NCBI GenBank assembly: GCA_964520205.1
Contig: CAZFOA010000003.1
Span: forward strand, 1 to 42,130
Origin: an uncultured Verrucomicrobiota bacterium
GTDB taxonomy: Bacteria > Verrucomicrobiota > Verrucomicrobiia > Limisphaerales > BOG-1460
Direction: 5' to 3'
Length of the DNA stretch: 42,130 bases
In this document: positions 4,250 through 20,299 of the stretch, piece by piece
How the letters are laid out: the number at the start of each line of letters is the position of its first letter
Position numbering within the stretch: position 1 is the stretch's first letter
Notes under the pieces: model-generated
The model's database searches: none
What the model was told of the DNA's origin: nothing
The model's input: the letters and a program-made list of their open reading frames with translations, nothing else
Position numbers and translations under genes: made by a program

Positions 4250-5454
4250 CTGTTGTTGCTCAGGGTTGATGAGGGTTTGTTTGCGGCGACGAGCGCGGCA
4301 TCGTAGGCGGCCAAAAAGTTTTCAGCCATCCTTGCCGGTGACAAATAGGCGCGGGTTTTGGCCAAAGTATCGGGATCGACCAGGCCTTTGCCGAACAACG
4401 GATGGGCGCAGGCTTCTTTGATGGCGCGAACAAAGGCAGCCAAGTCACCGGAGGGGAACAGAAATCCATTCTTGCCGGGAATCAAGTAGTCAGGAATGCC
4501 GCCGACCCGGCTTGCCACCACGGGCAGGCCCGCCACGAGCGCCTCCTTGACCGCGTTCGGGCTCACGTCCGCGCGCGTGGGAAAGAGCATCATCGTCGGT
4601 GTTTGCAGTTCTCCAGCCATTTCGTCCGGGCGCAAATGGTGTTTGAATTCAACGCGATTCCAGAGTTCCGGCGAGGCGGTCGGGCACAGTGTGGCTGGCG
4701 CCGGGGGCGGGTTTTCGCTGATGACGGTGAGCTTGAAAGGCATTTCAGCGGTGAGTTGATTCAGCGCCTGGAAGAGCAAGTCTATTCCCTTCCGATAGCC
4801 GGGCGTGCCGACAAAGATAAAGTGAACCGGGCCGGCTGCGGGCCGGCGTTGCACCTGGTGAAAAAACCAGTTGGGCGCATGCTCGGCCTGGCAGACTTGC
4901 GGACGAGGATAATGCTGTTTGAGATACTGGACGGCAAACGATGATTCGGTGGTGATCACGGGCACCCGGGGAAAGCTTCTTCTTTCCCAAAATGCCGCGA
5001 AATGCTCGAACAGCGTCATGGGCCCGATTTCCCGGTACCAGCTCAACAAGCCCTGCACCGTTGCCAGGTAAGGGTAACCGATCTGACCCGCCACCCAGGC
5101 CGCTCCCCTTTCACTGCCCCACGCATGGATCAGGTCTGGTTTGATCCGCTTGCAGACACCGCGGATCAAACAGGTGTCCAGCCAGAACAGGGAGAGAACA
5201 CGCAAACCGGCGGGCGCTTTCAACACGTGGAAGACGGTTCCGTTGCGCTCAAAAGAAACGCTTCGCGCAATCCGCCTGCGCATCAGAATCACGTGGACAC
5301 GGAGCGCCGGATTTTTTTCGAATTCAGAAAGCAACACCTTTTGCCAGGTTGCCGGATGACGCCGTGGGAGCGCGCGCAGCGGTTCCGGCAAATCCGGCAG
5401 CCATTCCACGGCAAATTCCGAAATCCAAGCGACGGTCAATGGATTCTTTAACAT
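4246..5454 (-). CDS. Glycosyltransferase family 4 (GT-B)
   Basis: Track ORF 4246..6066, trimmed to Met205 (CAT at 5452-5454, MLKNPLTVAWISEF). The upstream 204 codons are low-complexity and overlap the divergent GT2 gene. C-terminal signature FPTRADVSPNAVKEALVAGLPVVASRVGGIPDYLIPGKNGFLFPSGD. Confidence 0.85.
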   Translation of the reverse strand: MLKNPLTVAWISEFAVEWLPDLPEPLRALPRRHPATWQKVLLSEFEKNPALRVHVILMRRRIARSVSFERNGTVFHVLKAPAGLRVLSLFWLDTCLIRGVCKRIKPDLIHAWGSERGAAWVAGQIGYPYLATVQGLLSWYREIGPMTLFEHFAAFWERRSFPRVPVITTESSFAVQYLKQHYPRPQVCQAEHAPNWFFHQVQRRPAAGPVHFIFVGTPGYRKGIDLLFQALNQLTAEMPFKLTVISENPPPAPATLCPTASPELWNRVEFKHHLRPDEMAGELQTPTMMLFPTRADVSPNAVKEALVAGLPVVASRVGGIPDYLIPGKNGFLFPSGDLAAFVRAIKEACAHPLFGKGLVDPDTLAKTRAYLSPARMAENFLAAYDAALVAANKPSSTLSNNR

Positions 5455-5737
5455 GACGAACGCAGCGGTCTGAACGGGTGCGCGGAGTGTATGGGATGGA
5501 GCCGGATTGGCAAGCTTCTTGGCCGGACGGCAGTGAGTGAGTTTGGTCGGGCGAGGCTGCCCAGGAAGCGGGCACAAATTTGGACTGCGAAAGCGGCGCA
5601 GCGCTTTGCTTCCTGCCGCAGCCCAAGACGTTTTCGCGCCGGCAACACGCCCTCGAGTTGTGCCGTTCGCGGAGTCAACCGGCGGAATCGGCTTGTTTTC
5701 CGGCCAAATCGCAAGCAACATCCCGCGACGAACTTGT

Positions 5738-6505
5738 ATGGCGCCACCGTCTAATTCAGCGCAGCCGCTAACCCTGTTGTCCGTCATCATCCCGGCGCGA
5801 GACGAGGAAGGCTGCATCTGCTCGACTGTGGAGCATCTGCACCTGGAGTTGCGGCTCCATAACGTTCCGCACGAGATCGTGGTGGTGGATGATGGCAGCA
5901 CCGACCGGACGTGGGAATTGCTGGCCGGGCTTGGCACCAGGCTCCCGGAATTGGTTCCGGTGAAGAATGAAGGACAACATGGATTTGGCCGCGCCATCAT
6001 CTGCGGACTTGATCGCATGAAAGGTGATGCCGCGGTGATCATGATGGCGGACGAATCGGACGACAACCGGGACGTGGTGCGGTACTGGCAGGAGCTGAAC
6101 CGGGGTCAGGACTGTGTTTTCGGCAGCCGTTTTATGAAGGGCGGCGGGGTGATCGATTATCCCCGGGTGAAACTGCTGTTCAATCGGCTGGCAAACCTGT
6201 TCATCAAGGTACTGTTCCAAATCAAGCTGAATGATACCACCAATGCGTTCAAAGCTTACCGGCGCACCGTCATCGACGGCTGCCGCCCCCTGGTTTCGCC
6301 TCACTTCAATCTGACGGTGGAATTGCCGCTGAAAGCGATCGTGCGCGGCTACAGTTGGACCGTGATCCCGATCACCTGGCGCAACCGCCGCAGTGGCACC
6401 GCCAAGCTGAAGATCAAGGAAATGGGCAGCCGCTACCTCTTTATCTGCCTTTACGTTTGGCTGGAAAAATATTTCAGCCGGGGAGACTATCGCAAACTGT
6501 CATGA
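5738..6505 (+). CDS. Glycosyltransferase family 2, polyprenyl-phosphate sugar synthase type (Dpm1/ArnC/GtrB-like)
   Basis: Track ORF 5537..6505, trimmed to the ATG at 5738 (MAPPSNSAQPLTLLSVIIPARDEEG). GT-A motifs LSVIIPARDEE, VVVDDGSTD and MMADESDD. No C-terminal TM bundle. Stop overlaps the next gene's start (ATGA at 6502-6505). Confidence 0.85.
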   Translation: MAPPSNSAQPLTLLSVIIPARDEEGCICSTVEHLHLELRLHNVPHEIVVVDDGSTDRTWELLAGLGTRLPELVPVKNEGQHGFGRAIICGLDRMKGDAAVIMMADESDDNRDVVRYWQELNRGQDCVFGSRFMKGGGVIDYPRVKLLFNRLANLFIKVLFQIKLNDTTNAFKAYRRTVIDGCRPLVSPHFNLTVELPLKAIVRGYSWTVIPITWRNRRSGTAKLKIKEMGSRYLFICLYVWLEKYFSRGDYRKLS

Positions 6506-7197
6506 TTTACGATTCGAAGGAACTGGAGACGATCTATGGCCAGCGGTTTGCCGGCCGGCGCGAGTATCGCAATCGGGTCTGGCAGGTCCTTATCGGGAGT
6601 TTTTTTCAGAAATTTGTCCGGCCGGAGGACAGTGTATTGGACCTGGGCTGCGGCTACGGCGAATTCATCAACAACATCCGCTGCCAGGCGAAATACGGGA
6701 TGGACCTGAATCCGACGTCGGGCCGGATGCTGGCATCGGGCGTGCATTTTTTCCAGCAGGATTGTTCCGCGCAATGGCCGCTGGGGGAGAGTTCGCTGGA
6801 TGTGGTTTTCACGAGCAATTTCTTCGAGCATCTGCCGGACAAACGAACCCTTGCGGCCACGTTGACCCAGGTTCATCGTTGTTTGAAGCCCGGAGGCAAG
6901 CTGATCGCGATGGGGCCGAACATCAAATTCGTGCCCGGCGCGCACTGGGACTTTTGGGACCATCACCTGCCGCTGACCGAGCTGTCATTGAGCGAAGGAA
7001 TGCGGAATCTCGGTTTCACCATTGAGCGGTGTTATCCGCGCTTTTTGCCCTACACGATGGTAAACTCGCCCGAGTATCCCCCAATTTTTGTGCGGATGTA
7101 TTTGGCGCTGCCGATTGCCTGGCGTCTCTTGGGCGGGCAATTCCTCGTGGTTGGAGTTGCCGCGAAAGGGGAAGCCGACGCCCTATCGGGCCGGTGA
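6502..7197 (+). CDS. Class I SAM-dependent methyltransferase
   Basis: Track ORF 6355..7197, trimmed to the ATG at 6502 (MIYDSKELETIYGQRF). Motif I is VLDLGCGYGEF and the post-I/II region is LDVVFTSNFFEHLPD ... LKPGGKLI. ATGA overlap with the upstream GT2 suggests translational coupling. Confidence 0.85.
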   Translation: MIYDSKELETIYGQRFAGRREYRNRVWQVLIGSFFQKFVRPEDSVLDLGCGYGEFINNIRCQAKYGMDLNPTSGRMLASGVHFFQQDCSAQWPLGESSLDVVFTSNFFEHLPDKRTLAATLTQVHRCLKPGGKLIAMGPNIKFVPGAHWDFWDHHLPLTELSLSEGMRNLGFTIERCYPRFLPYTMVNSPEYPPIFVRMYLALPIAWRLLGGQFLVVGVAAKGEADALSGR

Positions 7198-7350
7198 AGC
7201 CTGGGGGGCAGCTGCAATTCGCTCCGCACGGATCGAGGAAGTGCCAGCCGGCATTTGTTCTGGCAGCGAGTCGGGCAGCAAGTTAAATTTTGGCATATGG
7301 AATCACCTCCGGCTCATTCGGTTCAACGACAAACAGATTCCTCGCCCAAG

Positions 7351-9093
7351 ATGCCGGCGTGGTCCGATGCGCGGGTTCTTGTCGGCCTCGCCTTGGTCGC
7401 GGGACTGCTGCTCCGCCTGGTAGGATTGTCCCAGCCGCCATATGACGACCACAGCTTTCGCCAGACCCAAACCTTGTCCACGATTGAGGCTTTTCACGCT
7501 CATGGGATAGACTTGTTGCATCCACGGGCCATCTACATGGGTGATCCTGGTGTATTCGTGTTGGAATTGCCGGTGTTTCAGGCATTGGCGGCCTGCCTCT
7601 ACGACGTTTTTGGTCCCCATCTGGAGGTCATCCGAATCTTGAACATTCTGATGGGTGCTGCCACAACGTGGCTTCTATATCGGATTACCCTGCATTTCCT
7701 GGATCGAACCACCGCGATTCTGACGGCGCTGATCTATTGGTTGGCGCCGCTGAACATCATTTATCAACGATCCATGCTGTTGGATCCCACCGCGGTTTTT
7801 TTCGGTTTGCTCGCCTTTTATTGTCTGGCCTTGCTGGCGGTCGGTCGCGATTCCCATGGTGCATCGGACATCCACCGGACCGACTGGTTCACTTTCATAG
7901 GATTCGTGGTGGCCACCTGGTTTACCGCAATGATCAAAGCGCTTTACCTCTGGCCTGTGGTCCTGTTGTTGGCGAAGGTTCTTTTCGAGCGCAGATTCAA
8001 GGTGGATGGGTGGTTCGTGCGAATCCTGTCGGTATTCGCGGTGGCGGGTGTGTTTTTTCTCGCTTGGAACTACTACGCCGCGCAAGTCAATGATGCATCG
8101 CCCTTCACTCGAGGCGTCAAGCCTACGTCCTTGCTCGGCATGTCGGATCTGTTCACCTCGGAATTCTATCATAAATTGTTTTCCCGGCCAAAATGGTGGC
8201 TGGGGGGCGCCGGAATCCTCCTGTTTCCGGTCGGCTTGGTGGCAGCCTGGCTGCAGCGCCAAGACCGGGTGCGCGCGGCCGCAACCGGGTTCATGATCCT
8301 TATCCCCCCCACCTACCTTCTGGCCTTTGCGAATATCAACCGCCCTCACGATTATTACCAACTGATCATCACTCCGTTTCTGGCCGTTGTGCCGGCGATC
8401 GGGCTGCGATGGCTGGCGGCACGGTTCCTGTCGCCGCCCGCGCAAGCGAAACCAATCCGGTATACGGCCATGAAATGGATTGCAATTGTTTGCGCCACCG
8501 CGCTGTGCGGTTTTGCGCTGCTGCTGTCTTGGGAGAAGTGGCACGACCCCGCGCACCCTCGCCGCATCTTCCTGTTGTTGATGCTGCCCCTCACCTGCTT
8601 GCTCCTGTTCGCTGGCGTTTTTGCCGTGCCCCAAGGGTTGTTATCAATGGGCAACCGGATGCTCCGGCGCGCGGTGGTGGCGGGCGTGTGTGGGCTTTTG
8701 ATACTTTCCTCGGTGCTGACTTATCGGATGTGGCTTCAAGCGCCGAAACTGGACAGGCGACTGTTGAAATTTGAAGAACTTTGCACTGGGAAGGTGCTTC
8801 GAGGCGGTTCAGCGATGGTGTTTGTGGCACAAATTGGCGACGGCGACGCGGTGTTTGGTGAAATCCCTCAGTACATTTATGCCGCAAAACTCTGGGGTTT
8901 TGGCATGGCTGTGCAAGATGCGGCGGGCGCACGCGGCTATTTTGAAAAACTCGCCTCCGCCTTTCCGCGGCTGGAATACGTCGTGTTTTACGGCACAGAC
9001 TGCCCTGATTGGCTGCCCAGCAATGCGTTCCGTCCGGCGATTCAAGACGGCAGCAACCGGCTCTACATTTTCCAACGGGTATCGTCGAGCTGA
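7351..9093 (+). CDS. GT-C fold glycosyltransferase, ArnT/PMT-like (GT39/GT83-type), polytopic membrane protein
   Basis: Track ORF 7255..9093. In-frame starts at 7255, 7297 and 7351; 7351 (MPAWSDARVLVGLALVAGLLLRLVGL) immediately precedes TM1. The early periplasmic loop carries acidic residues (PPYDDHSF). More than 10 hydrophobic helices, then a soluble C-terminal ~120 aa. Confidence 0.8.
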   Translation: MPAWSDARVLVGLALVAGLLLRLVGLSQPPYDDHSFRQTQTLSTIEAFHAHGIDLLHPRAIYMGDPGVFVLELPVFQALAACLYDVFGPHLEVIRILNILMGAATTWLLYRITLHFLDRTTAILTALIYWLAPLNIIYQRSMLLDPTAVFFGLLAFYCLALLAVGRDSHGASDIHRTDWFTFIGFVVATWFTAMIKALYLWPVVLLLAKVLFERRFKVDGWFVRILSVFAVAGVFFLAWNYYAAQVNDASPFTRGVKPTSLLGMSDLFTSEFYHKLFSRPKWWLGGAGILLFPVGLVAAWLQRQDRVRAAATGFMILIPPTYLLAFANINRPHDYYQLIITPFLAVVPAIGLRWLAARFLSPPAQAKPIRYTAMKWIAIVCATALCGFALLLSWEKWHDPAHPRRIFLLLMLPLTCLLLFAGVFAVPQGLLSMGNRMLRRAVVAGVCGLLILSSVLTYRMWLQAPKLDRRLLKFEELCTGKVLRGGSAMVFVAQIGDGDAVFGEIPQYIYAAKLWGFGMAVQDAAGARGYFEKLASAFPRLEYVVFYGTDCPDWLPSNAFRPAIQDGSNRLYIFQRVSSS

Positions 9094-9481: not shown

Positions 9482-11044
9482 ATGACGCACGCTCCTCCGC
9501 TTCTTCGTTCGCTGATTCTTTACGCGATCTGTTTGCCGCTGGCATTGTTCTTGGGGTACTTGCTTGCCAACCCGTTGCAATGGTCCTCGTTCGTCCCGGT
9601 CCTGGCGATGATGTTCCTCCTGATCCTGCCGCTGTTGCTGCGTTTTCACCACCCGCTGATGGTCTTGGGGTGGAACGCAACGATGATTGTCTTCTTTTTG
9701 CCGGGCGCACCTGGCGTGTGGCTCCCGTTGGTGGCCATGAGTCTGTTCATCTCGGTGTTGCGCCGCACCGTGGATCAGCGATATCGGTTCATTACCGTTC
9801 CCGAAATTACCTGGCCTCTGGTGGTGCTGGCCCTGATCATCCTCGCCACCGCCGAAGCGACCGGTGGCATCAAACTGCGATCCATGGGCGGAGAAGTCTA
9901 TGGCGGCAAGAAATACATTTTCTTGCTCATGGGGATCGCGGGTTACTTTGCCCTGACCGCCCAACGGGTCCCCGTCAGCCGAGCCAAGCTGTATTTGTCG
10001 CTTTTCTTGCTGGGTGGTGCGACCACGCTGATCGGTGATGTATTGTACACGGGCAATCGCGCGCTGGCGTTTGTGTATTGGTTTTTTCCGCCAAACACGT
10101 TCATGCTTGGGGAAACTTTGAATTCCGTGGGCACCCGTTTTGCGGGCATTGCAGGCGTTTGCATCGTCTTATTTTCCTTTATGCTGGCGAAGTATGGGAT
10201 TCGCGAGATTTTTTCAAGCCGGCGCCCGTGGCGACTCATCATTTTCGCCTGTATCGCGTTTGGCAGTCTCTTGGGGGGATTTCGGTCCACGTTTATTTAC
10301 CTTGGCCTCTTGTTCTTTGTGCAATTCCTGTTGGAGAAGATGCACCGGACGAAATTGTTTCCCATCCTATTGGTTGGCTGCCTGCTCGCCGCCGTCGTCA
10401 CGCTTCCTTTTGCCAAAAAGCTTCCTTACGGCGCCCAGCGGGCGTTGAGCGTTCTGCCCATCAATATCGATCAAGCGGCGCGCTCGGATGCGGACGCTTC
10501 AGTGGATTGGCGGCTGGAAATCTGGAAAGCGGTGCTCCCGCAGGTGCCAAAATATTTGTGGCTGGGAAAGGGCGTGGCGCTAACCCAAGAGGATTATAGT
10601 TTCGTGGTAAGCAACTATACCGGCACCATGCAGGCATTTTCCGAAGACCAGAGCTGGGCGGCGCTGGCGGGAGATTACCATAGCGGGCCGCTCTCGGTCA
10701 TTATTCCATTTGGGATTTGGGGCGCCGCGGCTTTTCTGTGGTTCTTGACGGCAGGTTTCCGCATGCTTTACCGGAACTACCGGTATGGCGACCCGGAGCT
10801 GGCAACGGTCAACTCATTTCTTTTCGCAGCATTTTGCACAAAGGTTATCCTTTTCTTTGTGATCTACGGCGCATTTGCATACGATATGCAGGTATTTTGC
10901 GGGTATCTGGGCATGAGCGTATGCCTCAACGGCGGGGTCGCCCGCCCGGCCCCGAAGCCGGTGCCTGAAACCGCACCGCTCGGCGGCTTGTCAAAGTTTC
11001 CGGCCCGGCGTCGGCCCGCGTTCGGAAGATCGGGTCAGGCTTGA
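9482..11044 (+). CDS. O-antigen ligase/polymerase-like membrane protein (WaaL/Wzy_C family)
   Basis: Track ORF 9422 (GTG)..11044; the ATG at 9482 (MTHAPPLLRSLILYAICLPLAL) is the likelier start. About 10-12 TM helices. A periplasmic loop carries ...DWRLEIWKAVLPQVPKYLWLGKGVA..., typical of the O-antigen ligase domain. Confidence 0.8.
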   Translation: MTHAPPLLRSLILYAICLPLALFLGYLLANPLQWSSFVPVLAMMFLLILPLLLRFHHPLMVLGWNATMIVFFLPGAPGVWLPLVAMSLFISVLRRTVDQRYRFITVPEITWPLVVLALIILATAEATGGIKLRSMGGEVYGGKKYIFLLMGIAGYFALTAQRVPVSRAKLYLSLFLLGGATTLIGDVLYTGNRALAFVYWFFPPNTFMLGETLNSVGTRFAGIAGVCIVLFSFMLAKYGIREIFSSRRPWRLIIFACIAFGSLLGGFRSTFIYLGLLFFVQFLLEKMHRTKLFPILLVGCLLAAVVTLPFAKKLPYGAQRALSVLPINIDQAARSDADASVDWRLEIWKAVLPQVPKYLWLGKGVALTQEDYSFVVSNYTGTMQAFSEDQSWAALAGDYHSGPLSVIIPFGIWGAAAFLWFLTAGFRMLYRNYRYGDPELATVNSFLFAAFCTKVILFFVIYGAFAYDMQVFCGYLGMSVCLNGGVARPAPKPVPETAPLGGLSKFPARRRPAFGRSGQA

Positions 11045-11167: not shown

Positions 11168-12187
11168 ATGCCTGAGCCCGTCGTCCCGCCGGATGGAAGG
11201 TCGCCCGCCGCGAAGCCGAAGCTTTTGGTGGTGGAACTCTGGGGTTTGGGAGACCTGGCCATTGCGACGCCGTTTTTGCAAGCCGCCAGCCGGAAGTACG
11301 CGGTCACGCTTCTGGCGAAACCTCATGCGAGGGACTTACTGGCGCGGTTCTGGCCGGAGGCAAGCGTTGTGCCTTTCACGGCGCCTTGGACTGCCTTCAA
11401 ACGCAAATACCGTCTCTGGTCGTGGCCCTGGCGCGAAATCATGGCTTTGCGCCGCCGCTTGGCCGCGGAACATTTTGACTTCGGCGTGTCAGGGCGTTGG
11501 GATCCGCGTGATCATTTGCTGCTGAAATTTGCCGGTGTAAAAAACCGGATTGGCTTTCCCCGGGTGGGCAGCGGGATTTTTTTGACGGAGTCGCTGGTCC
11601 GGCCGGACGCGCAAGCGCATATTTATGAAAGCTGGCGATTGGCCGGCAACGCGCTGGGGATTGAACTGCCGCCTCGAAACCAGGCGGTTCGGCAGTTGTC
11701 GCGCGCCGGCAAACGGATTTTGGTGCATAGCGGCGCCCGGTTGCCGGCGCGGGTCTGGCCATTGGACCATTACCGCAGCTTGGTCCGGCACTTGCGCGAA
11801 AGTCATTACGCCGTGCAAGTGGCCTGCGACCCGGACCAGCAAGCCTGGTGGCAGGAGTCGGGCGAAGCCGCCGCCTGTCCGCGCACGGTGGCCGAACTGC
11901 TTTCGCTGGTTGACCAGGCATCCGTTTTCATAGGCAATTGTTCCGGCTCCGGCCATCTGGCCGCCATCAGCGGCGCGCCCACCTTCACTCTCTTCGGCCC
12001 GTCGCTGCCCCAATGGTTCGCCCCCATCCATCCGGCGGCGGAATGGATCGAAGGAATGCCTTGTCCGTATCGGCCGTGTGCGGATTACTGCCGGTTTTCG
12101 GTGCCGCATTGTTTGCACGATTTGAGCGAGGAAACCGTCTTGCCGCGAGTCCGCGATTTTTTGGCGCGGCACGCCGATTCGATTTAA
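11168..12187 (+). CDS. Glycosyltransferase family 9 (heptosyltransferase-like)
   Basis: 339-aa ORF. GT9 N-terminal pattern KLLVVELWGLGDLAIATPFLQAA, and C-terminal ...FIGNCSGSGHLAAISGAPTFTLFGPS... Confidence 0.85.
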   Translation: MPEPVVPPDGRSPAAKPKLLVVELWGLGDLAIATPFLQAASRKYAVTLLAKPHARDLLARFWPEASVVPFTAPWTAFKRKYRLWSWPWREIMALRRRLAAEHFDFGVSGRWDPRDHLLLKFAGVKNRIGFPRVGSGIFLTESLVRPDAQAHIYESWRLAGNALGIELPPRNQAVRQLSRAGKRILVHSGARLPARVWPLDHYRSLVRHLRESHYAVQVACDPDQQAWWQESGEAAACPRTVAELLSLVDQASVFIGNCSGSGHLAAISGAPTFTLFGPSLPQWFAPIHPAAEWIEGMPCPYRPCADYCRFSVPHCLHDLSEETVLPRVRDFLARHADSI

Positions 12188-12313
12188 GCGGCTCCGGTTC
12201 CGGCGGAGGGCAACGGGACGGGCAGGGCAATAAACACCAATTTCATGGAGCAACAACTCCGGCACCGGGATGGGTCAGCGATGAAAGCCGGGCTGCGCGC
12301 TCCTCGTGCCGGG

Positions 12314-13150
12314 TCACAGGCGGTTCCACCAGACAGCGGTGGGTTTTGAGACCTCAAACCGCACGCGATGCTCCGGGCTTGCCAACGTGTAAATCGAATA
12401 GCTCGTCGGCTTCAAGGAGAAATGGCCGCCCCCGATCCGGCGGAGCCGATGATGCATGATCCACATCGGTTTCAACAGCCGCGCCCACAGCGGGGCCATC
12501 CCCTGGGTTTCCGCCTTTTCACGAATCGCGTTGGGTTTCAAGTTCATGTTCTCGCCCGTGTCCGCAAAAGTGGAGGTGAAATGATCGAACACCGCCATCG
12601 GCACCCGCTGTTTCATCAGCGCCAGCACCCAATGGAAGTCGCCGAGGTCGCGCCATCGCGTGTCGAAGAAAATGCCCCGCTCGTGGATCACCCGCCGCCG
12701 GATAAACAGCGAACTGGTGAGCGCCGAGAATCGGTGCCACATGTGGAAGGGGTGTGGCACCAGGGAATGCCGGTGGCAGAGGTATTGGCCATTGCCATCC
12801 ACGACAATCGTCCCGGCCAGCGCCACTTCAATGTCGGGATGCTGCTCGAAGAACTCGCGCACGGCGCGGAGCGCGCCGGGCAAATATTGTTCGTCGCAGT
12901 TGAGATACGCCAGGATGTCGCCCTGCGCTCGGCGGTAGCCGCGGTTGACGGCGTCGTACATCCCGCCATCCTTCTCCACGAAAGCCTTGACCCGTTTGTC
13001 CTGGGGCAGCCAATCCAGCGTGCCATCGTCGGAACCGGCGTCCTGGACGATGTGCTCGAGTTGCACGCCCTCCTGATCGGCGACCGAAGCGATACACAGC
13101 TTGAGCCAGCGCGAGTTGCGGAAGCTCGGGGTTACAATGGAAAAGTTCAC
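12314..13150 (-). CDS. Glycosyltransferase family 2
   Basis: 278-aa ORF with a GTG start (CAC at 13148-13150). Starts MNFSIVTPSFRNSRWLKLCIASV, with DAGSDDGT and a D-x-D-like YLNCDEQY. Confidence 0.85.
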   Translation of the reverse strand: MNFSIVTPSFRNSRWLKLCIASVADQEGVQLEHIVQDAGSDDGTLDWLPQDKRVKAFVEKDGGMYDAVNRGYRRAQGDILAYLNCDEQYLPGALRAVREFFEQHPDIEVALAGTIVVDGNGQYLCHRHSLVPHPFHMWHRFSALTSSLFIRRRVIHERGIFFDTRWRDLGDFHWVLALMKQRVPMAVFDHFTSTFADTGENMNLKPNAIREKAETQGMAPLWARLLKPMWIMHHRLRRIGGGHFSLKPTSYSIYTLASPEHRVRFEVSKPTAVWWNRL

Positions 13151-13246
13151 CAGCAGATTCTTACCATCCCACCGGGCGGTCCGTAAATGCAGAACCTTCG
13201 CGGCCGCCGGGGAGTTGATCCGCCAACCTCGATGGAGTTTTCCCGG

Positions 13247-14392
13247 TCAATCGATTTTCCGGCGGATTTTGATTCTGATTGCCCCGGGAATATCGTGTTG
13301 GCCGACGAGGACCAGGTAGCCGCCCCCGCCGGCGCCGGAGAGTTTCCAACCCAGCGATTGGGAGGCGTACTGGCGGATGGCGGACTTGACATCCCGGGTG
13401 GCCATGCGCGGGAACATGGCGACCTGGGCATCAAACGAGGCGCGGACCTGGCGGCCCAATTCCGCGGCATTCCTTTGCCGGATGGCATTCCAACATTGGT
13501 CCGCCGCGGAGGCGAGCGCTTGAGCCTTGGCCGCGGTGACTCGCCGGTCCTTGAGCACCTGGAAACCGCCTTTGCGCGGCCCAAGCGGGATCAGATAGAG
13601 ATGCGCTTCCAGCCAATCCAGGATTGGGTCTTTGTCGATCGTCGTGATTTTTGCCGGCCAATACTGTCCGCGATAATCCAGCCGGTTCAAGCCCGGGAGC
13701 ACGATTCCGAGCGCGTCCTGAGAGCCGGAGAATTCCGTGGTGCCCGGCGGGTTTTCATAGGAGAAGAGAATTCTGGCCAGTTTCTCCCGGTCACCACCCG
13801 GAATGTCCGTCTGCCAAAGTTCAATGGCGCGGCGGCGGGAACTGGAAGCCATGCCGCTGCGTTCGTTGAACTCGATGGTGGGTTCCACCGAAACCACCAG
13901 CACCGGTCCGGCGCAATGCCTGGACACGAACGGTTGATCCAGCCAGCCGCCGGCGAGATCCAGGCGGTAAGGGATGCGGCACTCCCGGCGCAGGCTGGTG
14001 GTGGATCGGGCCGGCAGGTTGGGTCGCGGCCGGCGCCTGAGGACGACATATTGAATCCCCAGGCGCCGGCAAAGCCGCATTTTGGCGGGACTGTTTCCAT
14101 CTTCATTGACCACAAAGCAGTCCGGGGAAACACGATTTAATACCTCCATGAAATCCAGGATGCCCGAGCCGGTATTTACAAAACAGGCTTTCACATGCCG
14201 AACGGCTTCGAGCAGATATTTCCGCTCCGCCTGGTGGTTTACAGGGTAACGGCCCTTCAATTGCCGCACCGTCTGGTCCGAGCCGATCCCGACGTAAACA
14301 TCCCCGTAAGCCGCCGCCTCCTCCAGGAAGCGGATGTGGCCGCTGTGCAACAAATCGAAGCAACCGCTGACAAAGACTTTCTTCTGGCTCAT
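13247..14392 (-). CDS. Fused cytidylyltransferase-like nucleotidyltransferase (N-terminal) and GHMP sugar kinase (C-terminal)
   Basis: 381-aa ORF. The N-terminal ~130 aa carry KKVFVSGCFDLLHSGH (HxGH signature of the TagD/HldE domain II superfamily). The C-terminal ~240 aa carry RLDLAGGWLDQP, ERSGMASSS, SGSQDALG and KLSGAGGGGYLVL, which are features of the fucokinase/HddA-type GHMP branch. Confidence 0.8.
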   Translation of the reverse strand: MSQKKVFVSGCFDLLHSGHIRFLEEAAAYGDVYVGIGSDQTVRQLKGRYPVNHQAERKYLLEAVRHVKACFVNTGSGILDFMEVLNRVSPDCFVVNEDGNSPAKMRLCRRLGIQYVVLRRRPRPNLPARSTTSLRRECRIPYRLDLAGGWLDQPFVSRHCAGPVLVVSVEPTIEFNERSGMASSSRRRAIELWQTDIPGGDREKLARILFSYENPPGTTEFSGSQDALGIVLPGLNRLDYRGQYWPAKITTIDKDPILDWLEAHLYLIPLGPRKGGFQVLKDRRVTAAKAQALASAADQCWNAIRQRNAAELGRQVRASFDAQVAMFPRMATRDVKSAIRQYASQSLGWKLSGAGGGGYLVLVGQHDIPGAIRIKIRRKID

Positions 14393-14578
14393 AAAACCGG
14401 GCTTGAGCCGATCTTCATCTGCGGTTCAAGTGAATAGAGATGGCTTAGCCGCAAGCTGGAGGCGAAGATGCTAAGAATCATTTGTGAAGGCAACGCGATT
14501 CAGCGGTCTCGGAAATGAAATGGCCCTTGCCACCGCAACTTCTCCCCGCCAGACTTTATCCCGGTTTGCGGCAAATTC

Positions 14579-16219
14579 ATGAAGATCGCGCTGGCCCAGA
14601 TCAACACCACCGTCGGCGACCTCGCCGGCAATGAACGGAAGATCCACGACGCTTATCGGCGTGCGGTCGCATTGGGGGCCGAACTGGTGGTCTATCCCGA
14701 GCTCGCCACTACCGGTTACCCGCCTCGCGACCTGCTGCTGCGGCCGCGATTCATCGAGGAAAACCTCGCGGTTCGGGACCGGCTGGCGGCGGCGTGCGGG
14801 AAGACCGGCATGATCGTGGGCTACGTTGGGCGCAACGAGAAGCGGCCCGGGCGCGAAGTCACCAACTCCGTGGCGTTGCTGCACGAGGGGCGGATGACTG
14901 CCACGCGCGCCAAGACGCTGCTGCCCACTTACGATGTGTTCGATGAGGACCGGTATTTCGAGCCGGCGCCGGAAAATGCCCCGTTCGATTTCAACAATAC
15001 CACGATGGGCATGACGATCTGCGAGGATGTCTGGAATGACGAGGATTATTGGGACGAGCGCCGATATCGCCGCAACCCGGCGGCTGAACTGGCGCGCGCG
15101 GGGGCGGAGATATTGTTCAACAGCTCGGCCTCCCCCTGGCATCTCGGCAAGAACGGCGCCCGCCGCAGCATGCTTTCGCAGCTCGCCATCAAGACGCGCC
15201 GCCCGGTGATCTACTGCAATCTGGTGGGCGGGAACGACGAGTTGATTTTCGACGGCGGCAGCATGGTGTTCGACCCGCAGGGCCGGCTGGTGGCCGAAGG
15301 CAGGCGTTTCGAAGAGGATTTGCTGGTGGTTGATCTCAGCACGGCGGCGGCGGCGATCGATCTCCCCGAGCCGCCGGACGAGGAACTGGTATTCCGCGCG
15401 CTGACCCTGGGCCTGCGCGATTACCTGGAAAAATGCGGGTTCAAATCAGCGGTGCTGGGTCTGAGCGGCGGCGTGGACTCGGCGGTCACCGCGTGCCTGG
15501 CGGTGGCGGCGCTCGGCGCCGGGCGGGTTCAGGGGATTTCGCTCCCTTCGCAATTCTCTTCGCCGGGCAGTCTCGATGACGCCCGCGCGCTGGCGCGGAA
15601 TCTCGGGATTCAATACGACGTTATTCCGATCCAGCCGCCCTTCCTCGGGGTGAAGGAGCAGTTGAAGGGCATTTTCGCCGGAAGACCGGAAGATACCGCC
15701 GAGGAAAATATTCAAGCCCGGCTGCGCGGGGTGATTCTCATGGCGTTGTCCAACAAGTTCGGATCGCTGTTGCTGACCACCGGCAACAAGAGCGAGGTGG
15801 CGGTGGGATATTGCACCCTTTACGGCGACATGTGCGGCGGCCTGGCCGTCATCGCCGACGTTCCCAAGACCCTGGTTTATCGCGTCGCCCGGTGGATCAA
15901 CCGGGAACGGGAGGTCATTCCCGAGGCCTCCCTCACCAAACCGCCTTCGGCCGAACTGCGGCCCAACCAGACCGACCAGGATTCGCTGCCGCCTTATGAC
16001 GTGCTTGACCGGATTCTTGAGGACTATGTGGTGCGGCTCAAGACGCCCACCGAAATCATCGCCGCCGGGATTCCGGAGGCCGCTGTGCGCCGCGTGGTCC
16101 GCCTGATCGACCTCAGCGAATACAAGCGCCGCCAGGCTGCGCCCGGTCTGAAGGTGACCACCAAGGCGTTCGGGATGGGCCGGAGGATTCCGATCGCGCA
16201 GCGATACCGGGAACTGTAA
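14579..16219 (+). CDS. nadE: Glutamine-dependent NAD+ synthetase
   Basis: 546-aa ORF. N-terminal CN-hydrolase domain (MKIALAQINTTVGDLAGNERKI ... ICEDVWN). C-terminal PP-loop synthetase domain (VLGLSGGVDSAV). Confidence 0.95.
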   Translation: MKIALAQINTTVGDLAGNERKIHDAYRRAVALGAELVVYPELATTGYPPRDLLLRPRFIEENLAVRDRLAAACGKTGMIVGYVGRNEKRPGREVTNSVALLHEGRMTATRAKTLLPTYDVFDEDRYFEPAPENAPFDFNNTTMGMTICEDVWNDEDYWDERRYRRNPAAELARAGAEILFNSSASPWHLGKNGARRSMLSQLAIKTRRPVIYCNLVGGNDELIFDGGSMVFDPQGRLVAEGRRFEEDLLVVDLSTAAAAIDLPEPPDEELVFRALTLGLRDYLEKCGFKSAVLGLSGGVDSAVTACLAVAALGAGRVQGISLPSQFSSPGSLDDARALARNLGIQYDVIPIQPPFLGVKEQLKGIFAGRPEDTAEENIQARLRGVILMALSNKFGSLLLTTGNKSEVAVGYCTLYGDMCGGLAVIADVPKTLVYRVARWINREREVIPEASLTKPPSAELRPNQTDQDSLPPYDVLDRILEDYVVRLKTPTEIIAAGIPEAAVRRVVRLIDLSEYKRRQAAPGLKVTTKAFGMGRRIPIAQRYREL

Positions 16220-17501: not shown

Positions 17502-18479
17502 ATGAACTCAGGAAAGATTCTGGTAGGTGGCGCGGGCGGTTTCATCGGCGGTCATCTCGTCGCGGAACTGCGCAGGCAGGGCCGGCGTGACATTCGCGCC
17601 GTGGACATCAAGCCGTTCAATGAATGGTACCAGAAGTTTCCGGACGTGGAAAATCTCCAGCTCGATCTGCAGGACAAGGCGGCGTGCGAGCAATCCGTGC
17701 GCGGCGCGCAGCAGGTGTACAATCTGGCGGCGGACATGGGCGGGATGGGATTCATCGAAAACAACCGCTGCCTTTGCATGCTGTCCGTCCTCATCAACAC
17801 CCACCTGCTGATGGCCGCGAAAAAATTCGGCGTGCAGCGCTACTTTTATGCGTCCTCGGCCTGTGTTTACAACGCAGACAAACAGCGCGACGTCCATGTG
17901 ACCGCGTTGAAGGAAGAAGACGCGTATCCGGGCATGCCCGAAGACGGTTATGGCTGGGAAAAACTGTTCAGCGAAAGAATGTGCCGCCATTTCCGCGAGG
18001 ACTTCGGCATCACCACCCGGGTCGCCCGGTTCCACAACGTTTACGGGCCGCACGGCACGTACGACGGGGGGCGCGAAAAGGCGCCGGCGGCGATTTCCCG
18101 CAAAGTGATCGAGGCCAAATTGTCCGGCAAGCACCAGATCGAAATCTGGGGTGACGGCCACCAGACGCGCAGCTTCATGTATATCGACGATTGTTTGAAG
18201 GGCATCCAGGCGATCCTGGAGAGCGATATTCTGGAGCCGATCAATTTGGGGAGCAGCGAACTGGTGTCCATCAACCAACTGGTGGACCTGGTCGAGGACA
18301 TTGCGGGAATCAAGCTCGAGCGCACCTACAACCTGAAGGCCCCCAAAGGCGTCAATGGCCGGAACAGTGACAATACGCTCATTCGAAAATATCTGGGCTG
18401 GGAGCCGGACACCCGTTTGCGGGCCGGCATGGAAAAGACCTATCGCTGGATTTACGACCAGATGACGGCGGGAAAGTAG
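17502..18479 (+). CDS. NAD-dependent sugar-nucleotide epimerase, GDP-mannose 3,5-epimerase-like (extended SDR)
   Basis: 325-aa ORF. Rossmann motif GGAGGFIGGHL, then NLAADMGGMGFI and YASSACVY, which are characteristic of the GDP-mannose 3,5-epimerase branch, plus YGWEK (YxxxK). Confidence 0.8.
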   Translation: MNSGKILVGGAGGFIGGHLVAELRRQGRRDIRAVDIKPFNEWYQKFPDVENLQLDLQDKAACEQSVRGAQQVYNLAADMGGMGFIENNRCLCMLSVLINTHLLMAAKKFGVQRYFYASSACVYNADKQRDVHVTALKEEDAYPGMPEDGYGWEKLFSERMCRHFREDFGITTRVARFHNVYGPHGTYDGGREKAPAAISRKVIEAKLSGKHQIEIWGDGHQTRSFMYIDDCLKGIQAILESDILEPINLGSSELVSINQLVDLVEDIAGIKLERTYNLKAPKGVNGRNSDNTLIRKYLGWEPDTRLRAGMEKTYRWIYDQMTAGK

Positions 18480-18614
18480 CGCTTTGAACCGGAACCTTTC
18501 TGATGGCGGCTTTGTTGCATTCAAGCCGGGTGACCACCGGGGGGGGCGCGGTGCCGGGTATTTTTGAGCAAAAACCACCAATTCGGTATCTAATATGCTC
18601 GAATTCGCGCGCAC

Positions 18615-19586
18615 ATGAATAACCAGGCTACAATCGGGATACTCGATCAGTTTCAGACCGACCTGATGGATTCCTGGCGGCGGCTGCCCAACAGGGGATT
18701 TTTCTTCGCCCTGCTGGCGGCGTGGCTGTTGCTGTTTCAACTGTTGGGCAATCCCCTCATGGGTTTCATTCACACGCCCTCGCTGTATGCGTGGATGTAT
18801 AATGCATACAACAGTCCGAACACGTCCGGCGATGACGCCATCGGAAATTTTGTTCCCTTTCTGGTGTTGGGATTGCTCTGGTGGAAGCGCGGGGAGTTGC
18901 TCGCGCTGCCGCTCAAAATGTGGATTCCGGGATTGCTGGTGCTCATCGCGGCCATGGTCCTGCACGTCGCGGGATATGTGCTCCAGCAACCGCGGCTGTC
19001 GATCATCGCGTTGTTCGCGGGCATTTATGGCCTGGCGGGGCTGGCCTGGGGCCGCGAGTGGTTGCGGAACACCATTTTCCCGTTTTTTCTTTTGGCGTTT
19101 TGCATCCCCTTGGGCGTGCAGGCCGACATCATCACGTTCCCGCTCCGGCTCCTGGTCTGCCGGCTGGTGGAAGTGATTTCGCACTCCGTCCTGGCGATCG
19201 ATGTGGTGCGAAGGGGAACCGAATTGAGTGATCCCTCCGGCGCCTATCAATATGATGTCGTGGCGGCCTGCAGCGGAATCCGAAGTCTGTTTGCCATTTT
19301 CCTGCTGAACACGGTTTACGGCTTCGTGATGTTTAGGCCCTATTGGAAGCGCCTGGTGATGATGGCGCTGGCATTGCCCTTTGCTGTTCTGGGCAATTTG
19401 ATCCGCCTGCTGTGCATTATCATTGCCGCGGAAATCGGTGGAAAAGGGTGGGGGGATTATGTGCACGAAGGCGGCCCCTTCGGAATTATCAGTCTCCTGC
19501 CCTACATCCCGGCGATTGTCGGCGTATTGGCGGTCGGGCGTTTTCTGGAAAGAGGCGAGACCCCCGCCGGGAAAGCGCGTCCATGA
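18615..19586 (+). CDS. Exosortase (EpsH/Xrt family transpeptidase)
   Basis: 323-aa polytopic ORF. Catalytic-Cys motif VVAACSGIRSLFAIFLL, a downstream LGNLIRLLCIII (N-x-x-R) and a conserved Arg in FPLRLLV. Stop overlaps the EpsI start (ATGA at 19583-19586). Confidence 0.85.
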   Translation: MNNQATIGILDQFQTDLMDSWRRLPNRGFFFALLAAWLLLFQLLGNPLMGFIHTPSLYAWMYNAYNSPNTSGDDAIGNFVPFLVLGLLWWKRGELLALPLKMWIPGLLVLIAAMVLHVAGYVLQQPRLSIIALFAGIYGLAGLAWGREWLRNTIFPFFLLAFCIPLGVQADIITFPLRLLVCRLVEVISHSVLAIDVVRRGTELSDPSGAYQYDVVAACSGIRSLFAIFLLNTVYGFVMFRPYWKRLVMMALALPFAVLGNLIRLLCIIIAAEIGGKGWGDYVHEGGPFGIISLLPYIPAIVGVLAVGRFLERGETPAGKARP

Positions 19587-20299
19587 AATATCAGAAGATG
19601 CTGCTGGTCGTCGTCGTGGCCGGCCTGATGGCCGGCACGGCGGGTGTCTTGACCTGGCTCCGGTCGAACCAGAAGCTGGGCAAGCCGGGCATTAAGGCGA
19701 CGCCCATTCCCGGCAGTGTGGCCATGACCCTCGAGTTGCCGGCTCAAGTCCTGGATTTCACCTCCACCAATGTGCCGGAGCCCGAATTGGTCCTGGGTTA
19801 TCTGCCCAAGGACACCAGCTTTGTTGAGCGCCTGTACCAAGCGCCGGACGGCATGTTCGTCCAGGCGACGATCATATTGATGGGAGCAGATCGAACCAGC
19901 ATTCACCGGCCGGAAATGTGTTTGTTGGGCAACGGATGGCAGGCCAACGAGAAAACCGTGGTCAACATCCCCATTGGTGGTCCGCATCCGTATCCATTGC
20001 CGGTCATGAAATGGGTCATCACCCGGCAGCAGGATGGCCTGCGCGGGCTGTACGTCTTCTGGTTTGTAGCGGACAACGAAATGGCGACGCACAACGTTCG
20101 GCTCCAAATTGATCTGGTCCGGGACCTTTTGTTCAGGGGGGTATTGCAGCGCTGGGCGTACATGAGTTACTTCGCGGTCTGCGCGCCCGGCCAGGAGGAG
20201 GCCGCTTTTGAACGGGTGAAACAGCTCATCGCCGCTTCCGTGCCCGAATTCCAACTGCCGCCGCAGACCGCCGGGGCGCCCGAAGTCGCGAAACAATAA
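19583..20299 (+). CDS. Exosortase-associated EpsI-family protein
   Basis: Track ORF 19343..20299, trimmed to the ATG at 19583 (MKYQKMLLVVVVAGLMAGTAG, a signal/anchor). EpsI hallmark SIHRPEMCLLGNGW. Translationally coupled to the exosortase gene. Confidence 0.8.
   Translation: MKYQKMLLVVVVAGLMAGTAGVLTWLRSNQKLGKPGIKATPIPGSVAMTLELPAQVLDFTSTNVPEPELVLGYLPKDTSFVERLYQAPDGMFVQATIILMGADRTSIHRPEMCLLGNGWQANEKTVVNIPIGGPHPYPLPVMKWVITRQQDGLRGLYVFWFVADNEMATHNVRLQIDLVRDLLFRGVLQRWAYMSYFAVCAPGQEEAAFERVKQLIAASVPEFQLPPQTAGAPEVAKQ

Follow-up and report, generated by a model that had tools for sequence, protein, structure and literature searches.

GDP-fucose and its analogues are, as a standard, made with the enzyme FKP, which also serves to produce fucosyl-oligosaccharides in engineered E. 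coli. A second protein, Amuc_1591 of Akkermansia muciniphila, has been drawn into fucose activation by genetics: according to a 2026 report (Gut Microbes, PMC13313206), spontaneous D-arabinose-resistant mutants all carried lesions in Amuc_1591, its inactivation relieved D-arabinose toxicity, and L-fucose or mucin rescued growth. In the model given there, the protein combines an adenylyl/cytidylyltransferase domain with an FKP-like domain resembling sugar kinases, and it was named a 'putative fucose-nucleotidyltransferase'. Here, we analyse a gene of comparable design at positions 13247 to 14392 of a 42,130-nucleotide stretch, hereafter the window, from an uncultured Verrucomicrobiota bacterium (assembly GCA_964520205.1, contig CAZFOA010000003.1). 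An earlier note, made from the sequence alone, had described it as an unusual fusion of a cytidylyltransferase-like domain to a GHMP sugar kinase. The gene and its domains are as follows.

13247-14392, minus strand: fusion gene, cytidylyltransferase-like domain plus predicted mini-GHMP sugar kinase; 381 aa plus stop, uninterrupted open reading frame
13988-14392, minus strand: N-terminal HIGH-motif nucleotidyltransferase domain, residues 1-135 (PF01467; HxGH at 16-19, RSTT at 129-132)
13250-13978, minus strand: C-terminal predicted mini-GHMP kinase domain, residues 139-381 (motif I R143/W150/D152; P-loop 178-185; D226; GAGGGG 353-358)

On the evidence of domains, residues and gene context set out below, we think it rather likely that the encoded protein is a bifunctional sugar-activating enzyme, which would do the job of FKP with different parts, by a two-step scheme and in a salvage role. 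Its product would be a nucleoside diphosphate sugar, probably GDP-L-galactose or GDP-L-fucose, destined for an exosortase-linked polysaccharide. The general idea of the earlier note, an anomeric kinase and a nucleotide-sugar synthase in one polypeptide, fits this evidence.

The fusion gene is confirmed as a real, conserved and intact two-domain gene, on match statistics far beyond what chance would give. An artefact from two genes mis-joined by a sequencing frameshift, against which the earlier note had cautioned, is ruled out because the reading frame is unbroken and hundreds of homologues are similar in length; more distant full-length homologues are present in several phyla. About 8000 relatives scored in a word-indexed search, and the best 120 of these share 68-80% identity with the window protein, are nearly all 380-384 aa long (range 376-410) and bear 'cytidyltransferase-like' as their sole annotation. 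In an exhaustive search of representatives at 50% identity, 239 clusters scored at E<=1e-30, among them full-length fusions down to 33% identity and standalone C-terminal domains of about 240 aa. Of 301 sampled Verrucomicrobiota genomes, 31 carry full-length orthologues, as do 8 of the 251 genomes from a second phylum, the one to which a Bacteroidetes-labelled metagenome-assembled genome (MAG) belongs; such orthologues are also present in Anaerolineae and in one cultured Formosa species, and a more divergent subfamily of the same architecture extends to many further Verrucomicrobiota, Akkermansia included. The survey of the architecture that the earlier note had proposed thus places it in several phyla. 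Exact-sequence look-ups gave no record for the window protein or for the orthologues at loci L004 and L010, and a promoter and terminator scan of 12100-14700 gave nothing above chance.

For the N-terminal domain, the assignment as a nucleotidyltransferase was borne out by profile, motif and fold. Pfam CTP_transf_like (PF01467) matches residues 8-105 with 51.2 bits (cut-off 21, E 1.9e-13). The HxGH signature is H16-S-G-H19 within GCFDLLHSGH, with H16, G18 and H19 at least 90% conserved across the fusion family, and RSTT at 129-132 corresponds to a phosphate-binding motif of the (R)xxISTT type. Against the sequences of the PDB, phmmer matched the N-half to ethanolamine-phosphate cytidylyltransferase (ECT), HldC and TagD, and a profile search with the N-domain found ECT (98.9 bits), 3glv and TagD. 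We also built an AlphaFold2 model of the fusion on 40 homologues (mean predicted local distance difference test score, pLDDT, 93), and Foldseek placed its N-half with TagD (1coz, 2b7l), HldC (5xf2), the cytidylyltransferase domain of Fom1 (5x3d) and ECT; target TM-scores to TagD, HldC and the Fom1 domain were 0.67-0.86, as for a Rossmann-like fold. The top NCBIfam match, rfaE_dom_II (TIGR02199, the HldE adenylyltransferase), reached 63.2 bits against a cut-off of 181.5. Profile scores did not separate CTP-, ATP- and GTP-using candidates.

The C-terminal half resembles the kinase part of FKP. The NCBIfam FKP model (PRK13412, NF009948) matches residues 300-375 (E 1.2e-12, 46.5 bits against a cut-off of 721); the match joins the last 75 residues of the fusion to the C-terminus of the model, of which only positions 871-945 are covered, and the fusion has no counterpart of the N-terminal pyrophosphorylase domain of FKP. 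With phmmer against the PDB, both ends of the C-half matched the FKP fucokinase chains 9iip and 5yys, and Foldseek retrieved FKP fucokinase 9iip (E 4e-10), the heptokinase WcbL (4usk), 3k85 and mevalonate kinases. The fold-match probability was 1.0 to FKP, WcbL and mevalonate kinase, yet the stretch from strand 2 to the P-loop is short by 58-85 residues. On its predicted fold and its motifs, the domain is a putative GHMP sugar kinase whose nearest relative is the fucokinase part of Bacteroides FKP, in agreement with the earlier note. All three GHMP motifs quoted there (RLDLAGGWLDQP, SGSQDALG and SGAGGGGYLVL) can be found in the protein, and the family shows little or no variation in them. We correct one point, in that the phosphate-binding loop of GHMP motif II is RSGMASSS (178-185), while SGSQD carries the catalytic Asp226. 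The motif set comprises R143 in PYRLDLAGGW, RSGMASSS, D226 in SGSQD and GAGGGG at 353-358. These catalytic and glycine-loop residues are invariant or nearly so in homologues at 33-80% identity.

Which residues of the FKP active site are kept? A hidden Markov model (HMM) of standalone and fused C-domains was aligned to FKP in native numbering, with the FKP roles taken from PMC11982464, and gave the following correspondences (FKP residue first).

Arg592, R143 in the fusion: stabilises the transferred phosphate
Trp599, W150: stacks on fucose C4-C6
Asp601, D152: binds O3 and O4
Thr602, replaced by Q153: binds O3 in FKP
Gly759 and Gln761, G223 and Q225: sugar contacts
Trp760, replaced by S224
Asp762, D226: general base
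Glycine-rich loop 712-720, RSGMASSS 178-185
Motif III, GAGGGG 353-358

The residues chosen as a test of fucose contact (Trp599, Asp601, Gln761, Asp762 and Arg592) all have their equivalents (W150, D152, Q225, D226 and R143). The counterparts of the catalytic and sugar-contact residues, G223 included, vary little or not at all in the fusion family, and E213 is possibly the counterpart of FKP Glu751, judging from the alignment. The sugar loop reads GGWLDQ in the fusion, of the FKP type GGW.D, versus GGGGTD in a HddA-like kinase encoded elsewhere in the same genome and GGGSD in 3k85; therefore, the sugar pocket is of the fucokinase and not of the heptokinase type. The segment from strand 2 to the P-loop comprises about 92 residues in FKP and about 8 in the fusion family, a loss of about 85; comparison with the canonical 343-aa HddA-like kinase of the same genome puts the loss at 58 residues. 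Because these 58-85 residues of the N-lobe are gone, we call the domain mini-GHMP. The contacts of WcbL to ATP come mostly from R13, D163, S118 and S119 (PMC4691232). Since an arginine, an aspartate and P-loop serines of this kind are retained in the fusion, catalysis would be preserved by analogy, but the adenine pocket must then differ.

Two neighbours that the earlier note did not mention, as it did not mention the truncation of the kinase N-lobe, carry the argument from the fold to the substrate.

12314-13150, minus strand: GT2 glycosyltransferase (Pfam GT2), 278 aa, 96 nt downstream of the fusion gene on the same strand
17502-18479, plus strand: GDP-mannose 3,5-epimerase (GME); phmmer match along its entire length with plant GME 2c59 and 8sg0 (302 bits, E 6e-89)

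The GME gene lies 3 kb from the fusion gene. Its product scores 302 bits to plant GME versus 97 for the next class of short-chain dehydrogenase/reductase (SDR) and conserves the motifs ASSAC.Y, YG.EKL and GGREKAPAA with the catalytic Cys, Tyr, Lys and Lys. For another verrucomicrobium, Methylacidiphilum, the characterisation of a bacterial GME is reported (PMC6678494). The GT2 protein has WcaE as its top NCBIfam match and WrtF (9OMH-9OMN) as its top PDB match, with 65.6 bits versus 35 for the next. WrtF is a GDP-fucose fucosyltransferase of the GT2 family (PMC12595478), and its Asp66 and Asp167 are conserved in the window protein; at the 'DxD' position the window GT2 has NCDE, WrtF GADD, and WcaE, WbdO and Bf4306 N(A/S)GD. 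GT2 orthologues of 62-74% identity adjoin the fusion gene at three other loci, L002, L081 and L083, and the GT2 is a conserved partner of the fusion among its nearest relatives in Verrucomicrobiota. The order of the two genes is swapped between loci, with the fusion gene followed by GT2 in the window (12314-14392) and GT2 followed by the fusion gene in L081 (9092-11146) and L083 (9112-11149). An NAD synthetase gene neighbours the pair in the window, L081 and L083, and is directly adjacent in the window and L083.

Because of a pair of EpsH and EpsI genes, we regard the locus as an exosortase-linked exopolysaccharide cluster; such genes also flank the fusion orthologues in L081 and L083. The further genes of the window are listed here.

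18615-20299, plus strand: exosortase EpsH and EpsI (DUF3485); PF09721 124 bits, PF11984 49.8 bits
16358-17362, plus strand: WecG/TagA/CpsF-family glycosyltransferase; PF03808, 170.5 bits
11168-12187, plus strand: GT9-family glycosyltransferase; PF01075, 60.9 bits
9422-11044, plus strand: Wzy_C/O-antigen-ligase-like membrane protein (polymerase or ligase); PF04932, 44.9 bits
194-9093, strand unassigned: MBOAT acyltransferase, two GT4, methyltransferase and PMT-like membrane glycosyltransferase, by Pfam

The PF01075 and PF04932 matches substantiate the GT9 and Wzy/WaaL-like neighbours named in the earlier note, and its statement that the window holds neither GmhA nor GmhB is upheld. A 652-aa open reading frame at 17508-19466 (minus strand), opposite the GME and exosortase genes and without a Pfam match, is most likely a shadow frame of high-GC DNA.

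Is the proximity of the fusion gene to genes for GDP-sugars a common feature of its orthologues? In 43 orthologue loci, partner genes were sought by tblastn searches with reference proteins, and key identities were checked against curated models; this screen was used since neighbourhood clustering of crude open reading frames misses partners owing to high-GC shadow frames. Gmd and Fcl, which belong to the synthesis of GDP-L-fucose, stand beside the fusion in seven of the 43 loci (L081, L096, L100, L101, L108, L116 and L118), usually downstream and on the same strand, with Gmd at 548-593 bits, over the TIGR01472 cut-off, and Fcl at 416-480 bits, slightly below the cut-off of 500. GME, an enzyme of GDP-L-galactose synthesis, adjoins or lies near the fusion in six (the window, L002, L115, L116, L120 and L121). 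The gene for the permease FucP (over the TIGR00885 cut-off) is found at most 1.5 kb away in L004, L006 and L019 and is directly adjacent in the latter two. L116 holds genes for GME (286 bits to the Arabidopsis enzyme), the fusion, Gmd, Fcl, a further SDR and a WecG-like protein; because a UDP-glucose/GDP-mannose dehydrogenase gene upstream and a Wzx-type flippase gene downstream flank this set, we take its setting to be biosynthetic. At L121 the genes for a LacI regulator, GME, the fusion, a major facilitator superfamily (MFS) permease and a glycosidase-like protein stand in series, and the context looks catabolic. No phosphatase or isomerase partner recurs beside the fusion orthologues.

Natural fusions join the same modules in other ways: a rhaM-type mutarotase, the cytidylyltransferase-like (CT) domain and mini-GHMP in P0122, Gmd and the mini-GHMP kinase in P0209, and the mini-GHMP kinase with a GT2 in P0157 and with a TcdA-like glycosyltransferase in P0177. 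Among the proteins of related design, P0132 consists of CT, CT and mini-GHMP, and P0130 of a nucleoside-phosphorylase-family domain (PNP_UDP_1), CT and mini-GHMP; the phosphorylase in the latter might hint at the nucleotide involved. Two further loci differ in content. In an Anaerolineae MAG (L003, 6644-11523), genes for an aldo-keto reductase and for an iron-containing alcohol dehydrogenase flank the fusion, a context unlike the fucose and galactose gene sets of other loci. In a MAG of an Akkermansia sp. (L013, 8007-10865), a 384-aa fusion of the Amuc_1591 type is followed by genes for a 139-aa standalone CT protein (58% identical to the window N-domain), a cupin of the mannose-6-phosphate-isomerase type and a GT25.

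The source genome, which is 98.5% complete, contains no orthologues of Gmd or Fcl (best matches are generic SDRs, 28% identical), and we found no FKP or other fucokinase candidate in it. It does encode heptose functions apart from the fusion: an HldA-like kinase on contig C196 (345 bits, over the cut-off), a GmhA-like isomerase on C108 (175 bits) and, on C44, an HldC-like adenylyltransferase (174 bits, TIGR02199) as well as the canonical 343-aa HddA-like GHMP kinase with its GGGGTD loop beside a second SIS isomerase. Region 238-11027 of C44 is a probable heptose cluster with an SDR, the HddA-like kinase (1576-2235), a SIS/GmhA-like protein (3180-3578) and the HldC-like protein (10602-11027). 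A split second copy of the fusion system occupies positions 4378-8106 of contig C161 (locus L092).

7207-8106, plus strand: AraC-type regulator, divergent from the other three genes
6020-7066, minus strand: GME paralogue, 61% identical to the window GME
5201-6004, minus strand: standalone mini-GHMP protein, 267 aa, 37% identical to the C-half of the fusion
4378-5196, minus strand: tandem CT-CT protein with a degenerate HxGH in the first repeat

These four genes may form an inducible operon for the utilisation of L-galactose or L-fucose. Regions resembling the FKP kinase (model positions about 610-950, 71-84 bits) also occur within open reading frames of about 1107-1117 aa in the source genome (C129:8289-9215, minus strand) and in genomes of another phylum (G378:C3:1063816-1064979 and G494:C7:256727-257374); these frames encode a large conserved protein with a GHMP-like domain.

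How could the two domains work together? From conserved residues and fold, we propose that the mini-GHMP domain would bind a free sugar of L-galacto configuration, L-fucose and/or L-galactose, which would stack on Trp150 and form hydrogen bonds to Asp152 and Gln225. Asp226 would deprotonate the anomeric hydroxyl for attack on the gamma-phosphate of ATP, with the phosphate gripped by the RSGMASSS loop, Arg143 and the GAGGGG loop, and a beta-L-sugar-1-phosphate would result. In the second step, the HxGH/RSTT domain would move a nucleoside monophosphate from a nucleoside triphosphate onto this sugar-1-phosphate with release of pyrophosphate, yielding a nucleoside diphosphate beta-L-sugar. In the window, L-galactose and/or L-fucose would in this way be salvaged into the donor pool from which the adjacent GT2 would build the exosortase-linked exopolysaccharide. 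Such a salvage role is most likely because Gmd, Fcl and FKP are absent from the genome but GME is present in the same cluster; for the same reason, GME without Gmd and Fcl, L-galactose is at least as likely a substrate here as L-fucose. The earlier note had suggested a heptose or a 6-deoxyhexose, and the second half of this suggestion stands, as L-fucose or its 6-hydroxy analogue L-galactose, whereas the heptose does not. As to the nucleotide, gene context favours GDP, because of the repeated pairing with three GDP-sugar enzymes (Gmd, Fcl and GME) and with a GT2 of the GDP-fucose type, and we regard the chances of GDP as roughly even.

Several observations weigh against an FKP-like role with a GDP-sugar product. 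We know of no biochemically assayed member of the fusion family, and the sequence cannot tell L-fucose from L-galactose. The nearest characterised relatives of the N-domain use CTP (ECT, TagD) or ATP (HldC), and to our knowledge no member of the PF01467 cytidylyltransferase-like family uses GTP. The domain searches that the earlier note had proposed gave a divided result, in that CTP_transf_like matched while neither Pfam GHMP_kinases_N nor GHMP_kinases_C reached E 0.01 on the fusion protein; PF08544 is recorded for some of its close homologues. The N-lobe segment missing from the mini-GHMP domain normally helps to form the nucleotide pocket of GHMP kinases, so that binding of ATP is not assured. 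In the window GT2, the His142-Asn143 pair of WrtF is replaced by Thr-Ser. About two thirds of the orthologue loci lack any screened fucose or galactose gene: several, for example L005, L007, L008 and L010, have housekeeping or unrelated neighbours only, and in most of L095-L114 tblastn detected none of the screened genes. Finally, the absence of FKP from all 12 fusion-bearing genomes of the phylum of L004 is uninformative because FKP is so rare there (2 of 251 sampled genomes).

The best-placed alternative, which we nevertheless consider unlikely, keeps the two-step chemistry and changes the nucleotide: the product would be a CDP- or ADP-linked L-fucose or L-galactose, used by dedicated transferases such as the neighbouring GT2 or GT9. 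It draws on the best matches of the N-domain (ECT with 98.9 bits, TagD, HldC and rfaE_dom_II with 63 bits), all users of CTP or ATP, and on the GT9 genes near the fusion in the window, L002 and L081. Known GT9 members use ADP-heptose. The Amuc_1591 paper (PMC13313206) leaves the nucleotide unspecified. Against such a product stand the recurrent clustering with the GDP-sugar-specific Gmd, Fcl and GME, the natural fusion of Gmd to the kinase, the closeness of the GT2 partner to the GDP-fucose-dependent WrtF, and the use of GDP-fucose by the fucosyltransferases described in PMC11982464 and PMC12595478. The window GT9, moreover, has a conventional supply of donor because HldA-, HldC-, GmhA- and HddA-like genes lie elsewhere in the genome, and these separate ADP-heptose genes probably provide it. 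If the product were nonetheless CDP- or ADP-L-fucose or -galactose, we would be dealing with a sugar nucleotide not described so far, for which dedicated transferases would exist.

With GDP-sugar synthesis from a salvaged L-sugar still the preferred reading, its direction may be asked. A catabolic role, in which imported L-galactose would become GDP-L-galactose and, through GME, GDP-D-mannose for central metabolism in a Leloir-like manner, seems to us very improbable for the window. The AraC-type regulator beside the split paralogue on C161, the gene row of L121 and the adjacency of FucP in other phyla would suit it. The window copy, however, sits inside a cluster of glycosyltransferase, Wzy and exosortase genes with no regulator or permease nearby, and the GME-fusion-Gmd-Fcl set of L116 shares its cluster with a Wzx-type flippase; a catabolic role suits the C161 copy better than the window copy.

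We give a similarly small chance to the view that the C-terminal domain is no kinase, but a regulatory or sugar-1-phosphate-binding module of a protein that solely transfers nucleotides to a sugar phosphate made elsewhere. The N-lobe, short by 58-85 residues, the silence of the Pfam GHMP models and the term sugar-binding domain, which PMC13313206 applies to this half of Amuc_1591, speak for it. The P-loop, GAGGGG, Asp226 and Arg143 are, on the other hand, near-invariant at 33-80% identity, which would be unexpected in a purely binding domain; counterparts of the main ATP-contact residues of WcbL (R13, D163, S118 and S119; PMC4691232) are retained, and we found no other candidate for a fucokinase in the genome.

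Least probable of all is that a HddA-like heptose-7-phosphate kinase fused to an HldC-like adenylyltransferase makes a nucleotide-activated heptose for the GT9, as the earlier note had envisaged: a GT9 gene two genes away, rfaE_dom_II as the top NCBIfam match of the N-domain and heptokinases (WcbL and 3k85) among the top fold matches are outweighed by the separate HldA-like (345 bits), HldC-like (174) and GmhA-like (175) genes and the HddA-like kinase with its SIS isomerase, by a GGW.D pocket of the FKP type in place of GGGGTD or GGGSD, by a rfaE_dom_II score of 63 bits far under the cut-off of 181.5, and by orthologue loci in which fucose and galactose genes recur whereas phosphatase or isomerase genes do not. 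In view of the separate heptose genes and the differing pocket motif, we reject an ADP- or GDP-heptose route; a functional link of the fusion to the GT9 is not supported either.

An FKP-like salvage enzyme with a GDP-sugar product would have consequences beyond this locus. We put forward tentatively, as something a little short of an even chance, that the HIGH-motif domain is the first guanylyltransferase of its family, that the 381-aa protein is a minimal and independently evolved replacement of FKP, that its pairing with GME amounts to bacterial salvage of L-galactose, and that the C161 copy serves a Leloir-like use of L-galactose via GDP-sugars. If true, an enzyme of 381 aa with unrelated transferase chemistry would be a useful alternative tool to the 949-aa FKP, the cytidylyltransferase-like family would gain a wider range of nucleotides or substrates, and the mini-GHMP domain would show how far a GHMP N-lobe can be trimmed with its catalytic motifs kept. 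The fusion family could explain the activation of scavenged L-fucose in many bacteria without FKP, among them Verrucomicrobiota (Akkermansia included), Bacteroidota and Anaerolineae. The repeated pairing with GME points to a metabolism of L-galactose in bacteria, a subject that has been little studied.

How does the fusion compare with the systems described so far? The heptokinases HddA and WcbL (4USK, 3K85) stand with the fusion on one branch of the GHMP kinases that act on the anomeric position of sugars; they rank high among its fold matches, and the Arg/Asp mechanism is common to both. They are, however, unfused and full-length at about 345 aa, and the HddA-like kinase of the genome and 3k85 have a sugar pocket with GGGGTD or GGGSD and no Trp; with its GGWLDQ and truncated N-lobe, the fusion does not fit the HddA type, in which a kinase of some 340 aa carries a GGG(G/S)(T)D loop. 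HldE (RfaE) likewise unites a sugar kinase and a HIGH-motif nucleotidyltransferase from the family of the fusion's N-domain, but in the opposite order, with a kinase of the ribokinase (PfkB) fold and a heptose 7-phosphate as substrate, and it requires the phosphatase GmhB between its steps. The earlier note had drawn the contrast with HldE (order and kinase fold) correctly, as it had that with FKP, whose nucleotidyltransferase has a different fold.

Amuc_1591 shares the arrangement in which a truncated FKP-like GHMP domain follows a cytidylyltransferase-like domain, together with the motif set of HxGH, R.D.AGGWLD, P-loop and the catalytic QD. It is a distant paralogue, 37% identical over the first 190 residues with the remainder unaligned by BLAST; its motifs GWQD and GGGYGGY take the place of GSQD and GAGGGGY in the window protein, and it adjoins murJ and not an exopolysaccharide cluster with GT2 and GME. 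In our set it is P0272, which adjoins murJ and carries V176 and G326, the positions substituted in resistant mutants. For one paralogue, both the architecture and the fucose hypothesis have thus already appeared in print, with genetics and modelling as the sole evidence. A first literature search on bifunctional GHMP-cytidylyltransferase and heptose enzymes returned no paper on the fusion architecture, and in the passages of PMC13313206 that were read we found no mention of a GDP-sugar context of the genes, of a link with GME and L-galactose, or of the N-lobe deletion. Because of this 2026 proposal, the design is not wholly new; of the earlier description as an unusual fusion, the architecture proved real, but it is widespread and on record for Amuc_1591 (PMC13313206).

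With the FKP of Bacteroides fragilis (5YYS, 9IIP, 9IIT; PMC11982464), the fusion would share the whole task, predicted as anomeric phosphorylation followed by nucleotidyl transfer on an L-galacto sugar within one polypeptide, and it shares a kinase of the GHMP fold with the catalytic Arg and Asp, the glycine-rich loops and the Trp/Asp/Gln contacts to the sugar. It differs from FKP in the reversed order of its domains, in a 135-aa Rossmann domain with the HIGH motif (PF01467) where FKP has a large pyrophosphorylase domain with a beta-helix, and in its size, 381 aa versus 949 aa, with a kinase about 85 residues shorter between strand 2 and the P-loop. In summary, the window most likely encodes a bifunctional sugar salvage of the FKP type, assembled from non-homologous or truncated parts.

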